From: a virus
Lineage: Duplodnaviria > Heunggongvirae > Uroviricota > Caudoviricetes
IMG/VR virus record: IMGVR_UViG_3300011202_000010
Coordinates: 114,589-178,588 of that record
Length of the DNA: 64,000 nt
Reading direction: 5' to 3' (one strand)
Position numbers and translations under genes: made by a program. The notes under the pieces are model-generated. The model saw only the letters and a list, made by a program, of their open reading frames with translations, searched no databases and was not told the origin of the DNA. Shown one piece after another: positions 29,862-60,300 of the stretch. How positions within the stretch are numbered: the first letter of the stretch is position 1; every line of letters starts with the position of its first letter.

Positions 29862-30317
29862 TTAACTCATTTTTAATTCAAACTTATTACCATCTTCATC
29901 ATAATAAAAAGCTCTTAAAAACTTCATTCCAGCAAAATAACGCTCATCTTCAGTTGGCATTCCCATATCAAACTCATACCAAATATCATATTCTTTACCG
30001 TTTTTTGTAAAGGTTATTACTTCGTTACTATCATCTACTTGAATATCTTCAAACTCTTCAATGTATTCTTTTTTTTCTTCCAGATAAAGCTGATTGTAAG
30101 GAATGCCATAACCCTTTCTTGATTCTTCAATTTCTTTTTCACAAATAGAAAAACAACGAATTATAATTTCTACATCTTCTTTACTAACATCTTCATAAGT
30201 CATAGGAGATGTATTAATCCAAGAATCATGTTCATTAACATCTGTATGAGCTTTTTGATAAAAAATCTCAAGAAAATTTTTAGGATTTTTTGAATCTAAT
30301 GGAATAAACTCAATCAT
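29862..30317 (-). CDS. Hypothetical protein (151 aa)
   Basis: ORF. Confidence 0.5.
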   Translation of the reverse strand: MIEFIPLDSKNPKNFLEIFYQKAHTDVNEHDSWINTSPMTYEDVSKEDVEIIIRCFSICEKEIEESRKGYGIPYNQLYLEEKKEYIEEFEDIQVDDSNEVITFTKNGKEYDIWYEFDMGMPTEDERYFAGMKFLRAFYYDEDGNKFELKMS

Positions 30318-30604
30318 TTTGCTTCCTTATTTTTTTCCATTTCAGCAATTTCTTCTTTTGTAGCAAGGCGGCGAATACCAAATCCACTCAAAATAGTTAC
30401 AGGTTGTTTTTTCTTCCATTTACTTACAACATTTTCACCAAAACGTTTAGGCGCATTACCGTTCCATGAAGCAATAACGTGATTTTCATGAACTTCAATG
30501 ATTTTAACCGGATAAATAGAAATAGTTTTTAAAGTGGTATTACCCATTTTTGTTTTTGCTACGTTGAAAACAAGATCGCCGGGTTTGAGAGAAGTTAATT
30601 TCAT
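30314..30604 (-). CDS. Hypothetical protein (96 aa)
   Basis: ORF overlapping the downstream gene by 4 nt. Confidence 0.5.
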   Translation of the reverse strand: MKLTSLKPGDLVFNVAKTKMGNTTLKTISIYPVKIIEVHENHVIASWNGNAPKRFGENVVSKWKKKQPVTILSGFGIRRLATKEEIAEMEKNKEAK

Positions 30605-30630
30605 TTTATAGTTTCCTATATTTTAGATGA

Positions 30631-30782
30631 AGAAATGGTTGTGGTTTCATTGACTATTTACCCGTACACTCTTTCGCCTCTGACAACGAAATACAGCGAA
30701 TGACTCTGTTCTCCCGGCTCATCGTCCAGTGTGCTTTTATTCAGAATTCCCATTCTCGGTAATCAACGAACCACAACCATCT
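30631..30782. ncRNA. Candidate structured RNA (strand undetermined) inside a 300-bp GC-enriched intergenic island
   Basis: A 14/15-bp long-range inverted repeat, GAAATGGTTGTGGTT ... AACCACAACCATCTC, encloses about 120 nt at roughly 45% GC. Flanking sequence is about 30% GC. No credible ORF. Confidence 0.35.
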
Positions 30783-30918
30783 CAAAAATCTGGCCTTGTC
30801 TTTATATATCCTGCTCTTGGGCTAGGAGGCTTTCACCCGACATTGACACCCGTTTAAAACGTTCCAGTCTGTGCCAACAAAACCATTCTAATACATCTTT
30901 CTATCAAATGCAAACACT

Positions 30919-31419
30919 TTATATATGACAATCTAAAATAATTATCTCTGTACTTTCAGGTAGTTCTTCAAACATTTTTTCAAAGTCTATTACCCATTGA
31001 GCATCTGATCCTGATCTTTTTGCATCATACCATTCACCATCTTTAAGGAAAGCAGAAGGAAGTCTGTATTCTTTACATCTTTTCTCAATATACTCTTCTT
31101 TTGTTAAGTATTCTCCTAATGTTCTTTTGACCATTCTTTTAAACTTTTCTTCTGATAAGCCTTCCATGTTTTCGAAGAAAGAATATTCAATTTCTGCTGT
31201 TTCTTTCATTTCACTTTTCATCGCTTCAAAATCAATATCACTTATTTTTACAGCAAAAGTACTTACACCATCTTTTCTAATAAAAAATTTTGCAAATCTT
31301 CTCCCTACGCCAAAATTATCCCATTTTGCTATAGGGTAATGATTATCTTCTGTTTCTTTATATTTCTCCATTTGTTCTTTTATATCTTTTGTTAAAATCG
31401 TCATAAGAGCATAATGCAT
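30919..31419 (-). CDS. Hypothetical protein (166 aa) ending in ...DCHI; C-terminal domain paralogous to 33656-34648
   Basis: Shared segments ISDIDFEAM / IKDIDFEGI and P[SF]AF[LV]KDG[EQ]W, plus an identical DCHI C-terminus. Confidence 0.55.
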   Translation of the reverse strand: MHYALMTILTKDIKEQMEKYKETEDNHYPIAKWDNFGVGRRFAKFFIRKDGVSTFAVKISDIDFEAMKSEMKETAEIEYSFFENMEGLSEEKFKRMVKRTLGEYLTKEEYIEKRCKEYRLPSAFLKDGEWYDAKRSGSDAQWVIDFEKMFEELPESTEIIILDCHI

Positions 31420-31555
31420 TTTTTAAGATTCCTTATTTTGTTTTAAATATAGAATAGCATATTTCTATTCGATTTAACAATATTAAAAATAAGTTGTAAT
31501 ACTCTATATTTTTAAGATAGAATATATCCTTAACATTTAATAATTAGGAGTTTTA

Positions 31556-32461
31556 ATGAAAATTTTAAAAGATGAGAAAGTTAACTTAAGCGCATCATAC
31601 TTAGGTGTAATTCTTACAGTATTATGTGTCGCTATTGCTGTTTATTCTGGCCTTAATGTTATTTCTGGAACTCAATATAGCGGTTGGAATGAAACAGCAT
31701 CGAATGTCTATTCTTATTGGGCTATTGCTGGCGTTGTGTCTTTTTCTATTGCTTCACTTATATTTTTCTTTAATAGCTTTATTGTTGTTTCACCTAATGA
31801 AAAAGTAGTTGTTAGCTTTTTAGGAAAATATAGAGGAACCATTAATGATGAAGGTGTTTCTTTAGTTAATCCTTTTTTCTCTTTTGAAAAAATAAGCACT
31901 AAAATTTCCACATTTGAAACTCAAGAAACAAAAATCAATGATAGAGAAGGTATTCCTCTTAATGTTTCTATGGTTGTTAACTATCGTGTAGAAATGGCGG
32001 CTCCTTATCATTATAATGCCGAAAAACCTGCTGAAATCATATTAAACACAAGTGAAAGCGAACTAAGAAAAATCGTTACACAACATGTTTTTGATAGTGA
32101 TGATGAAAATGAAGAAACATTAAGCAAAAACTTAGAAAACTTTTCTAAAGAGTTGGTAAATAATATAAATAATAAGATTCATGATATCGGTGTAGTTATT
32201 ATTAGCGCTAACATTACTAAGATATCTTATGCTCCAGAAATCGCTCATTCGATGCTACAGCGTCAACAAGCTAAGAAGGTAGGGGAAAGCCGTAAGGAAA
32301 TAGTTAAAGCTGCTGTATCGACTGTTAGGGACGCTATTAACGATCTTGAAAGAGAAGTTAATGTTAAGTTTGATGAAAAAGATAAAAAAGATTTACTTAA
32401 AAATCTAATGTTGGTTATTGTTTCTGAAAAATCAACAACACCTGTTATTCATCTTGATTAA
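31556..32461 (+). CDS. SPFH / band-7 (stomatin-prohibitin-like) membrane protein
   Basis: AGGAG SD. Two N-terminal TM helices, then SPNEKVVVSFLGKYRGT... a band-7-like core. Confidence 0.6.
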   Translation: MKILKDEKVNLSASYLGVILTVLCVAIAVYSGLNVISGTQYSGWNETASNVYSYWAIAGVVSFSIASLIFFFNSFIVVSPNEKVVVSFLGKYRGTINDEGVSLVNPFFSFEKISTKISTFETQETKINDREGIPLNVSMVVNYRVEMAAPYHYNAEKPAEIILNTSESELRKIVTQHVFDSDDENEETLSKNLENFSKELVNNINNKIHDIGVVIISANITKISYAPEIAHSMLQRQQAKKVGESRKEIVKAAVSTVRDAINDLEREVNVKFDEKDKKDLLKNLMLVIVSEKSTTPVIHLD

Positions 32462-52679: not shown

Positions 52680-52710
52680 ATAAAAAAGCCTCCGAAGAGG
52701 CTTCTATTAT
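52680..52710. terminator. Intrinsic terminator
   Basis: AGCCTCCGAAGAGGCT hairpin with an A-run before and T-rich sequence after. Confidence 0.55.
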
Positions 52711-54593
52711 TTATATTTTTTATACAACTCTATATGCTGACTTAAAAAATCATCTTGATACATGATTTCCACATCATTTCCTTTATCTACCAAAATAGGT
52801 GTCATGAATCCCATAACATTAGCTAATCCCAAGCTGCTTACACGCTCTAATACTTCTTTATGCACTAATGGGTTAACTTTAGTTCCATATGCTTCTACAA
52901 GCTTTTTAGCCGCTTCAAAATCGCCTTCTGATTTAATACGCTGAATCTCAGATAAAAGAACTCCAACAAGTGTTCTTACATATTCAAGATCGTTAACTTC
53001 AATATAAAAGCGACCATCTTTTGTAACCATTGCCATTTTATCTTTTTCAGCATGATCTAACAGCCATGTTGAAATAATTTGACGATTCCTAAAATGCGCT
53101 TGCGTTAGATCATTCCCTAACTTGATTCTTCTTAGCTGACCAATAGCACCATTTGTAAAATATGCGATATATTTAGCTAGAGCTGCATCTTTTACATCCA
53201 CATCTTGAGCAAACACACCGATTTCTTTCAATTTCTCATCAGGAATATAATAAAGTGCTACTAGATCTGCTCGACATTCTTCAATTACAGAATAATAGGT
53301 TGAAAGAACATCGGTATTAACACCATCTAACACTTTGCCCGACCCATGACCCGCAATTTCATGTAGATCTGTATGAAGAACACCTGTTTCATTACCATAA
53401 CGCTTAATTAAAGCTTGATACTTATCAAGATAAAGCGCCTTCATTAATGGAACATCATAAGTATTCCTTGAAGAATCAACATTAGCTAACGTAACTGATT
53501 TAGATCCATGTTTTTTGCGAATCCAATCACTGTTTGGTAAATTAATGCCAAGAGGTAATACAGGAGATGGATCACCTGCCATTGAAATAACATTAATAGA
53601 ACTTGCCGATAAACCAACAGCTTTATCTTTTTTAAATTTACTATCAAATGGCAAGTTATTTTCAAACCATTGAATATTTTCAATAATCTTTTCAACTTTT
53701 GCCGTTTGTGATGGATCTTTAAATGCAACTATGCTTTCAAAATTACAAGCAATACCTAAAGGATCTTTATAGGACTCAATCAAGCCATTTACAAAATAAA
53801 TAGAACTTTCTTTATCTTTTGTCCATGCTACACAATGTTTATCAAAATCAGCAGCATCACCCGTTTTATAAAATTGAATTAGTGTTTCAATTGATTCTTT
53901 TTGTTGTTCATTCTCACTATAGAAAAGTGCTTTTTCAAGCTCTTTAATAATTTTTCCAACATAATGAGCATAAAGACCAACAGAACTAATTACTTGACGA
54001 TCAATTGAACCATCACTATTTTTTACGAGTCTTTCATTAAATCCATAAGGAGGAATTTCATCACCCTCTACTTTTGGATAGACCTCCTCACGGAACTGCT
54101 TCACTTCATCAGTTGTTAGACCTACATAAAAGTTAGCACCAGATTCTTTAACAACATCGACACCATCTTTTTGAACTGTTCTATAGTGAGGCATTAGATC
54201 TTTGCTAAATAGAATTTCTTCTACAGCTTTAGCAGCAGTAAAAGTTTCAATTGTATCTTTGATTTTCCTAAGTTCTTCCAACTGAATTGGAAAATCAAGA
54301 CGCTCACCTGTTGTTGTATGGTAAACACCACCATGAGCAAAAAATGTGAAAAGAGTATCTCGCAACTGTTCCCATACTTTTTCTTCATGATTAACTTCTT
54401 CAAATAGAAAAATCAGATTATCAAGTAGACGAATATTATAAGCTGACGCTTGGTGAAGAGAAATAACCTTACCCCACATACCTGCTTCTGATAGATGATA
54501 TACCAGCTTTTTCTTTTTCAAATCCATATCAGAAAAACCTGTAGTATCTAGTTTTACAATTGCAATATCATTTAAACGTTCTGAATAAGTCAT
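52707..54593 (-). CDS. M49-family zinc metallopeptidase (dipeptidyl-peptidase III-like), 628 aa
   Basis: HEIAGHGSG (the HExxGH variant characteristic of DPP III) and downstream EECRADL (the EECRAE second zinc-ligand motif). Confidence 0.65.
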   Translation of the reverse strand: MTYSERLNDIAIVKLDTTGFSDMDLKKKKLVYHLSEAGMWGKVISLHQASAYNIRLLDNLIFLFEEVNHEEKVWEQLRDTLFTFFAHGGVYHTTTGERLDFPIQLEELRKIKDTIETFTAAKAVEEILFSKDLMPHYRTVQKDGVDVVKESGANFYVGLTTDEVKQFREEVYPKVEGDEIPPYGFNERLVKNSDGSIDRQVISSVGLYAHYVGKIIKELEKALFYSENEQQKESIETLIQFYKTGDAADFDKHCVAWTKDKESSIYFVNGLIESYKDPLGIACNFESIVAFKDPSQTAKVEKIIENIQWFENNLPFDSKFKKDKAVGLSASSINVISMAGDPSPVLPLGINLPNSDWIRKKHGSKSVTLANVDSSRNTYDVPLMKALYLDKYQALIKRYGNETGVLHTDLHEIAGHGSGKVLDGVNTDVLSTYYSVIEECRADLVALYYIPDEKLKEIGVFAQDVDVKDAALAKYIAYFTNGAIGQLRRIKLGNDLTQAHFRNRQIISTWLLDHAEKDKMAMVTKDGRFYIEVNDLEYVRTLVGVLLSEIQRIKSEGDFEAAKKLVEAYGTKVNPLVHKEVLERVSSLGLANVMGFMTPILVDKGNDVEIMYQDDFLSQHIELYKKYK

Positions 54594-60225: not shown

Positions 60226-60300
60226 TGGTGCCTAATGCAGGATTCGAACCCGCGACAAAGAATTTTAGGGACTCCCGTTCTACCGCTGAACTAATTAGGC
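60226..60300 (-). tRNA. tRNA with anticodon CUA (amber-reading/suppressor-type), class I, 75 nt with CCA
   Basis: Perfect acceptor GCCTAAT/ATTAGGC, D-arm GTTC-AGCGGTA-GAAC, anticodon stem GGAGT/ATTCT (two G-U pairs) with loop CCCTAAA (C33 is unusual), T-arm GCGGGTTCGAATCCTGC. Confidence 0.55.

Follow-up and report, generated by a model that had tools for sequence, protein, structure and literature searches.

What is encoded in the GC-rich gap between two minus-strand genes of a tailed phage, and does it act on its own or on the gene that follows it? The gap lies in a 64,000-nucleotide (nt) stretch of the IMG/VR virus record IMGVR_UViG_3300011202_000010 (positions 114,589 to 178,588 of that record; Caudoviricetes), referred to here as the window, in which 30605-30918 is the whole interval separating an open reading frame (ORF) for a 166-amino acid (aa) protein (30919-31419) from an ORF for a 96-aa protein (30314-30604), both on the minus strand. 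A first-pass annotation had proposed that this island encodes a structured RNA, serving either as the leader or riboswitch of the 96-aa gene or as an independent small RNA (sRNA). We found that the island is the gene of a folded non-coding RNA of ~247 nt, which runs on the minus strand from ~30878 to 30632 and has two domains: (i) the 5′ ~95 nt are a member of the SraL/RyjA family in sequence and fold; and (ii) the 3′ domain has a conserved fold that matches no described RNA family and is a candidate for a new structured RNA class. Among the options that had been offered, an independent sRNA fits best.

The GC content is 0.41 across 30551-30950 (300-nt windows), compared with a mean of 0.294 (standard deviation 0.044) over the 64 kb. 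Only the tRNA clusters exceed this value, and the few stretches of ~0.40 elsewhere overlap listed ORFs (e.g., 40951-41150 within the ORF at 40580-42238), in agreement with the original description of a non-coding island whose raised GC content is unique in the window apart from the tRNA genes. The inverted repeat noted there was also recovered: its arms, GAAATGGTTGTGGTT (30632-30646) and AACCACAACCATCTC (30769-30783), are complementary at 14 of 15 positions and enclose 122 nt, and the one mismatch becomes a G.U pair on the minus-strand RNA, so that all 15 positions pair. By itself, the repeat is not beyond chance and is no evidence, because 14/15 inverted repeats at spacings of 20-250 nt are equally common in this AT-rich window (four) and in its shuffles (one to five). 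The structured RNA is established by a strand-specific fold together with covariation in homologous loci. The minus strand folds with −87 kcal/mol, with numerous G.U pairs and a z-score of −3.23 relative to shuffles; the z-score of the plus strand is −0.88.

Related contigs were located via the flanking proteins and by one metagenome pattern scan. A covariance model built from the phage copies of the RNA, termed R1, matches the window at 30625-30885 with 315 bits and finds the RNA in three lineages, always at the same position and directly after the homologue of the 166-aa gene wherever that gene is on the contig. The lineages are window-like phages (L088/L093, L105, and L115), phages of higher GC content (L037/L111/L113), and L137. 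Between lineages, the RNA is ~72% identical, and the flanking proteins are 64-67% identical. The RNA has a GC content of 44-49% in backgrounds of 29% (this window), 30% (the L088 and L093 loci), and 39% (the L091 locus).

Using RNAalifold on eight homologues, L137 included, we obtained 65 consensus pairs, 18 of them compensatory. For seven sequences and a structure with a pseudoknot, standard pairs fill 99.6% of 462 pair cells, and 17 pairs show double changes, versus 36-42% and 0-3, respectively, when the partners are slid. The compensatory base changes by which the first-pass annotation had proposed to judge the structured RNA are thus present over the whole molecule, and in the long stem, 8 of 18 aligned pairs change on both sides and none is broken. 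The 14-bp stem of that annotation is real, but it turned out to be only one helix of a much larger, two-domain RNA, whose location on the minus strand had also been missed; it is part of a stem that reaches 20-23 bp in each lineage (12 + 8-11 bp), with one small internal loop and differing sequences, and its inner extension pairs in the L037 lineage too, with a different sequence. Each of the hairpins P7, P8, and P9 has compensatory pairs. P6 (GCAC/GUGU) and the probable pseudoknot GAAUGR:UCAUUC are invariant except for one G.U to A-U change, which is consistent with pairing. In L093, a relative with 97.8% identity, 3 of 3 substitutions inside the RNA keep pairing. Two helices of earlier alignments were discarded: P1 of the first alifold structure (UGGUU/GGCCA), which has A.C mismatches and is probably upstream of the inferred start, and a CUG/CGG pairing in the 5′ hairpin, which was superseded by CGU(U)/(A)ACG, a pairing that covaries family-wide.

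The 5′ domain was identified by cmscan, which, with all Rfam families at gathering thresholds, returned only seven tRNAs and sraL in the 64 kb. The sraL match (RF01408; 30766-30878, minus strand) scores 46.7 bits for a gathering threshold of 39 (E 4.3e-7); a family match thus does exist and had been overlooked. The other phage copies score 49.3 (L105), 46.7 (L115), 40.5 (L113), and 39.3 (L111) bits, and L037, with 37.7 bits, falls slightly under the threshold. The reverse search succeeds as well: E. coli ryjA is matched by R1 with 20.9 bits (E about 5e-8 in 3 kb). An alignment of E. coli ryjA, five phage copies, and two copies from plasmids has a common fold in which 95.3% of cells are paired and 11 of 24 pairs are compensatory, versus 0-2 with slid partners. 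This fold consists of P2a, the internal loop A(A/G)AC(C/U)GGAA, a short P2b, a three-pair closing helix, P3, and P4. The internal loop and the GGAUA..AAAG junction are near-invariant in chromosomal, plasmid, phage-plasmid, and jumbo-phage copies, from Vibrio to Escherichia, and the P3 loop is of the GNRA type in chromosomal and phage copies (GAAA, GAGA, and GCAA). The phage 5′ domain is 70-77% identical to a Vibrio copy, 63-69% to copies on small plasmids, and 54-62% to chromosomal SraL.

The Vibrio and small-plasmid copies are unannotated SraL-like RNAs on further mobile elements, which we identified by BLAST with the L037 copy. One, on the V. vulnificus plasmid p48/10 (NC_025128.1; L143:2994-3129), scores 58.6 bits with the sraL model; such ~80-kb Vibrio plasmids carry P1-like portal, Pro, and PmgS genes and are, therefore, phage-plasmids. 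Another, on the E. coli plasmid CP016039.1 (L144:1449-1582), scores 84.7 bits. The small-plasmid copies reside on mobilizable ColE1-type plasmids of 5.4-5.8 kb from Escherichia, Enterobacter, and Klebsiella; the small-plasmid copy partly overlaps an annotated hypothetical coding sequence, in antisense orientation. Altogether, these plasmid and phage copies demonstrate that the SraL family is not confined to the enterobacterial chromosome. A BLAST search of E. coli sraL against the phage collection returned two unannotated records of 1.5-2.8 kb and two Salmonella genome contigs, which were taken as host DNA, and our literature search found no paper on phage- or plasmid-borne SraL.

The window copy sits between two phage ORFs and not at the chromosomal soxR-ghxP locus, where SraL is antisense to the soxR 3′ end. 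Its promoter begins right after the stop codon of the 166-aa gene, and the arrangement TTGC..N17..TA(G/T)AAT is retained in all lineages, RNA-less relatives included. The −35 and −10 hexamers are good and give little indication of the sigma factor used. Six nt separate the −10 box from the first base of the SraL body, as in E. coli sraL (TACAAT + 6) and the Vibrio plasmid copy (TAGTAT + 6); based on this shared spacing, we place the start at G30878. No terminator hairpin directly follows the SraL body at the window copy, and the sister lineages have one only past the extra domain. Consistently, a terminator scan of 30000-31600 returned 0 sites, and in the window lineage the RNA runs on into the 96-aa gene's ribosome-binding site (RBS). 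A small protein encoded in the island was considered and rejected; the ORFs there lack conservation, and the lineages differ by indels of 1, 2, and 5 nt, which break the frame.

In place of the SraL terminator hairpin, the phage RNA has a 3′ domain of ~150 nt overall, in which the long stem surrounds a conserved four-helix core of ~105 nt. A permissive Rfam scan of 30400-31100 (E up to 10) returned sraL and one spurious match only and left the 3′ 150 nt unmatched. ARAGORN reported only the seven tRNAs at 56-61 kb and nothing in the island, and no ARAGORN or Rfam model for tRNA, transfer-messenger RNA (tmRNA), 6S, signal recognition particle RNA, or RNase P matches there, which bears out the earlier statement that signatures of the last four are missing. 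Likewise, no model match was obtained for a group I/II intron, a ribozyme, a tRNA-like element, or tmRNA, and in RNA-less relatives, the genes on either side are separate genes. A TnpB/IscB guide RNA (omega/re-RNA) was also rejected: the RNA does not abut a nuclease gene, and the TnpB-like genes lie 1.7-2 kb off, beyond another gene. These are IS605-type TnpB genes (OrfB_IS605/Cas12f1-like) found upstream of the RNA site in relatives (L037:121-1581, L099:356-1504, and L103:356-1504). They occur in relatives with or without the RNA, and none is present at the corresponding place upstream of the gene for a Band_7-type protein in the window.

Could the 3′ domain simply be a processing or stability element, i.e., an RNase III/RNase E module or a self-cleaving ribozyme, whose core has no separate function? 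The stem stands where SraL has its terminator, and R1 aligns the terminator hairpin of SraL onto it; this correspondence is a positional analogy only, as the hairpins have no sequence similarity. Moreover, with its 20-23 bp and small internal loop, the stem is similar to RNase III sites. Nevertheless, a simple hairpin would suffice for such a role, yet a ~105-nt core with invariant junctions is conserved over three lineages, and no known ribozyme family in Rfam matches. We therefore consider it quite doubtful that processing is all there is to this domain. The long stem does have the length of an RNase III substrate, about two helical turns, and cleavage there would probably release the SraL-like module and the core from each other and from the mRNA downstream. 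Conceivable roles of the core itself are to confer stability, to bind a second partner, or to bind a ligand.

Whether the RNA is a gene of its own or a cis-acting leader can be judged from the arrangement of the three lineages. Downstream of the RNA, L037/L111/L113 have an intrinsic terminator, GACGCUUCGGCGUC-U6, and then an extra ORF of 80 aa. L137 has a different terminator there, AAGCUUCUUCGGAAGCUU-U7, with a promoter-like stretch (read by eye, no scan) and a 99-aa gene coming next. In contrast, in L099-L104, L106, L109, and L110, whose flanking proteins are 77-79% identical, the RNA is absent, and the promoter and the 96-aa gene are kept; only ~110 nt lie between the genes, of which the first ~13 nt are those of the RNA. 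These relatives keep GTTTTGTTGACA before an AT-rich leader of 65-75 nt (L099:3505-3613, L106:866-980, and L109:3383-3500), and from its sequence this retained start appears to be what remains of the 5′ hairpin, decayed following a deletion. The RNA was apparently lost from close relatives, most simply by deletion, and is an accessory module of these phages. Because the RNA has its own promoter and its own terminators, which differ between L037 and L137, has differing downstream neighbors, and is absent in relatives, we conclude that it is an independent gene; its SraL-family 5′ half points in the same direction. The description as a leader of the 96-aa gene is true by position in this window only, where no terminator intervenes.

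A leader in the functional sense would have the core sense a ligand or a protein and thereby control the translation or stability of the mRNA for the 96-aa protein. In its favor, the RNA is always upstream of the 96-aa gene family, in the window lineage it lies between the promoter and the RBS of that gene with no terminator, and the core is aptamer-like: several helices meet at a junction whose bases are invariant, and a pseudoknot is probable. However, the terminators of the two sister lineages are plain intrinsic ones, with no alternative pairing visible by inspection; the 80-aa ORF or the promoter-like stretch of L137 intervenes before the next gene; the close relatives appear to have the same gene behind the same promoter without the RNA; the closing stem of 20-23 bp is too stable for a switching P1; the 5′ half has a trans-acting sRNA as its homologue; and no Rfam riboswitch matches in the permissive scan described above. 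The sister terminators, the differing downstream arrangement, and the RNA-less relatives make a cis role unlikely, and the riboswitch option of the first-pass annotation is unlikely for the same element. The 96-aa protein offers no link to RNA biology: it has no Pfam, PHROG, PADLOC, or PDB sequence match, and its AlphaFold model (pLDDT 80, mostly beta-strand) has no significant neighbor in Foldseek, where the weak ones include SH3 and KOW domains (best E 0.47).

The presence/absence polymorphism among relatives, together with a GC content foreign to the phage, could also be taken to mean that the island is an inert passenger, i.e., a captured fragment of foreign DNA without function. This is highly improbable, as compensatory changes, the intact long stem, the promoter, and the terminators have been retained across lineages whose flanking proteins are 64-67% identical, and the 72% identity of the RNA argues against a recent transfer of one sequence.

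The window belongs to a jumbo phage of the Rak2/GAP32 type, based on protein matches and on one relative that lies on a contig of 347,831 bp. A 358-aa protein of the window matches proteins of Yersinia phage fHe-Yen9-04, an Erwinia phage, Serratia phage BF, and Pectobacterium phage CBB with 40-52% identity over most of its length, and its N-terminal 45% is 62% identical in Cronobacter phage GAP32. R1 found no copy of the RNA in the syntenic regions of fHe-Yen9-04, GAP32, and CBB. No true match came from GenBank phages when the island, a 24-kb region around it, or the L111 copy served as BLAST query, nor from E. coli genomes when these were searched with the island. Among the contigs returned by five exact-pattern scans of IMG/VR, that of L037 is real and all others are chance matches, with a family-wide SraL pattern also matching a conserved coding region in four contigs; a pattern scan of JGI metagenomes returned the same two lineages only, and a scan of GTDB genomes for the 3′ domain returned one chance match, in a Bacteroides gene. 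None of these scans revealed an additional copy of either domain outside the lineages described above; because such scans demand exact matches, the known distribution is a lower bound. The contigs listed for two of the related phages, L091 (Ga0308161_1000008, 866,249 bp) and P0005 (longest, 1,369,952 bp), far exceed a 350-kb genome and may be concatemeric or chimeric assemblies, or something larger.

What might the RNA do? SraL is RpoS-dependent (PMC3753932) and binds both Hfq and ProQ (PMC3753932, PMC8136791), making up about half, or a larger share, of ProQ's ligands in stationary-phase Salmonella (PMC8136791; also PMC9977716). It represses tig via genetically validated base-pairing (PMC3753932) and, as reported in PMC12360218 (which cites Silva 2019), raises rho expression by preventing premature Rho-dependent termination in the rho leader, where a site is reported. 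By homology only, we infer that the product of this non-coding RNA gene, carried by a jumbo phage similar to Rak2 and GAP32, acts in trans as a SraL mimic on the ProQ/Hfq-dependent regulation of the host, an explanation that we rank best and to which we give an even chance. In this model, the host polymerase would make the RNA early, from host-type signals; the RNA would then act in trans by engaging the partners of SraL, i.e., two RNA chaperones (ProQ and Hfq) and target mRNAs, the rho and tig leaders among them, through base-pairing or through titration of ProQ/Hfq; and host post-transcriptional control, e.g., Rho-dependent termination, would shift in favor of the phage. In the E. coli rho leader, CGUUUCAGUUCUG is the predicted pairing site of the invariant loop CAGACUGGAACG, with an energy of −18 to −22 kcal/mol. 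Segment-wise duplex prediction for the E. coli tig leader, which, like that of rho, may not be the leader of the actual host, gave nothing; unrestricted duplex folding with the tig and rho leaders produced meaningless whole-length duplexes and was discarded, and inside the 64-kb window, targets of the invariant loop or the linker are no more frequent than expected by chance.

Several observations weigh against this explanation. The predicted duplex with the rho leader is modest, with a z-score of −1 to −2.6 (30 shuffles, several tests, and the E. coli leader). What Hfq and ProQ usually grip, a terminator hairpin and a U-tail, is missing from the window copy. The A/G-rich linker differs by lineage (GACAAGG, GAGUAGG, and GACCUAAG), which makes a single conserved mRNA target at this place doubtful, and the phage RNAs do not share the sequence of the 5′-end segment of SraL, to which the 2013 paper assigns a part in the pairing with tig. 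The conservation of the loop and the junction across Vibrio, enterobacterial, and phage copies would fit a contact with a protein or a tertiary contact equally well. Finally, the covariation is from three independent lineages only.

Some of these points suggest a different mode of action, in which the RNA would be a protein decoy or sponge that titrates ProQ, Hfq, Rho, or a phage protein via its conserved loops, with the core as a second binding platform. An internal loop and a junction that are near-invariant across distant hosts are unusual for species-specific mRNA seeds, the segments that could serve as such seeds vary between lineages, and among the ligands of ProQ, SraL dominates in stationary phase (PMC8136791). 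However, the pairing of SraL with tig has genetic validation (PMC3753932), a rho-leader site is reported (PMC12360218), and the missing terminator hairpin of the window copy speaks against a decoy as well; we consider this reading unlikely. The natural relatives with and without the RNA make the system directly testable.

Table 1. Features of the RNA locus in window coordinates, listed in the direction of transcription
Feature	Position	Strand	Basis or remark
Sigma-70-type promoter	30885..30914	-	−35 TTTGCA 30914-30909, 18-nt spacer, −10 TAGAAT 30890-30885; promoter scan
Structured non-coding RNA, ~247 nt	30632..30878	-	Model R1 match, fold z-score, covariation; 5′ end G30878 inferred, structured 3′ end C30632
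5′ domain, SraL/RyjA-like, ~95 nt	30784..30878	-	Rfam RF01408 and family-wide fold
Helix P2a	30878-30871 with 30849-30842	-	5′ domain
Invariant internal loop AGACUGGAA	30870-30862	-	5′ domain
Hairpin P2b	30861-30851	-	5′ domain
Closing helix	GUC 30841-30839 with GAC 30800-30798	-	5′ domain
GNRA hairpin (GAAA), P3	30838-30827	-	5′ domain
Hairpin P4	30826-30810	-	5′ domain
Linker, A/G-rich then U-rich	30797-30784	-	5′ domain
Long stem, 5′ arm, GAGAUGGUUGUGG U UCGUUGAUUA	30760..30783	-	Pairs with 30656-30632
3′-domain core	30657..30759	-	RNAalifold and pair counts; junction strand CCGAGAAUGGG
Candidate pseudoknot	GAAUGG 30755-30750 with UCAUUC 30703-30698	-	Invariant
P6	GCAC 30734-30731 with GUGU 30669-30666	-	Invariant
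Hairpin P7	30729-30714	-	Compensatory pairs
Hairpin P8, loop GUCAUUC	30709-30693	-	Compensatory, 3/4 pairs
Hairpin P9	30689-30674	-	Compensatory pairs
Long stem, 3′ arm, UAGUCAAUGA AA CCACAACCAUUUC	30632..30656	-	Pairs with the 5′ arm; same covariation
Spacer, RBS AGGA 30617-30614, and ATG 30604-30602 of the 96-aa gene	30602..30631	-	Sequence

The features of the RNA and its surroundings are collected in Table 1. In the window lineage only, the 5′ end of the RNA, AUGGUUUUGUUGGCAC (30866-30887), resembles the 5′ arm of the long stem, AUGGUUGUGGUUCGUU (30760-30783, minus strand), and the 3′ arm could pair with either of them (22 nt, 73% complementary). This alternative pairing is not conserved in the L037 lineage and is probably due to chance or a trace of the deletion origin in relatives. 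The gene on the opposite strand to the RNA locus (31556-32461, plus strand) encodes a protein with Band_7-domain homologues in related loci. Farther away, the seven-tRNA cluster at 56.4-60.8 kb includes a tRNA with a CUA anticodon (60226-60300, minus strand), labeled tRNA-Pyl by ARAGORN; it is of the amber-suppressor type and may hint at stop-codon reassignment or suppression in the phage. Unusual phage cargo comprises, besides the gene opposite the RNA locus, two adjacent genes for GtrII-type glucosyltransferases (43821-47043, plus strand) and a gene for an M49-family peptidase (52707-54593, minus strand).

Compared with known systems, the phage RNA is closest in its 5′ half to SraL-like RNAs. 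It has in common with SraL/RyjA the P2a helix, the ..AC(C/U)GGAA.. loop, P2b, the GAAA/GNRA hairpin, P4, the GGAUA..AAAGA junction, and the distance between the −10 box and the first base. In contrast to SraL, it is encoded in a lytic-type jumbo phage and not antisense to the soxR 3′ end; its promoter is sigma-70-like, whereas that of sraL is described as of the RpoS type; its P2b is much shorter, and identity to the chromosomal RNA is low, as given above; and where the SraL terminator directly follows the body, the phage RNA has the 150-nt domain, with no terminator in the window copy. The nearest relatives of the 5′ domain are the SraL-like RNAs of the Vibrio phage-plasmids and the small plasmids, which likewise have a short P2b. 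Both have their own terminator, and the Vibrio copy has promoter-like hexamers of its own. Unlike the phage RNA, these plasmid copies are only ~135-140 nt long, end in an ordinary terminator, are without the 3′ domain, and have P3 loops that are not GNRA. For the long stem, the comparison is with the RNase III stems of phage early transcripts and rRNA precursors, which are long, near-perfect duplexes flanking structured RNA. The phage stem resembles them in its length of 20-23 bp and its small internal loop; however, it encloses a 105-nt core, whereas RNase III stems enclose an rRNA or an mRNA boundary.

As for function, virus-encoded sRNAs that use host chaperones embody the same general idea, as in a phage sRNA that hijacks host replication (bioRxiv 10.1101/2024.10.31.621285) and an enterohemorrhagic E. 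coli prophage sRNA that counters xenogeneic silencing (PMC13502914). These two are from a temperate phage or prophage, and their abstracts describe neither a homologue of a core host sRNA nor an added structured domain. The functional parallel with our RNA is inference only. The usual view of core bacterial sRNAs is that they are chromosomal and restricted to a lineage. The SraL family itself is known; what is new is a member borne by a mobile element as the 5′ domain of a larger RNA, together with a 3′ domain without a known relative. SraL-like RNAs on several types of mobile elements argue that the module has repeatedly been carried by such elements, and their presence in jumbo phages and plasmids suggests that mobile elements use SraL to manipulate the RNA-based regulation of the host. 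Going further, we tentatively offer, as possible though not probable, that SraL is more than a core sRNA of enterobacteria, being a mobile RNA module that jumbo phages, phage-plasmids, and plasmids spread so as to gain command of ProQ/Rho-linked control in the host, and that its jumbo-phage version has been fused to a new RNA class, the pseudoknotted four-helix core, that binds a ligand or protein or is catalytic. Rho silences foreign DNA. If our model is true, a modulator of rho expression that the phage itself makes would therefore be of interest as a device for take-over or counter-silencing.

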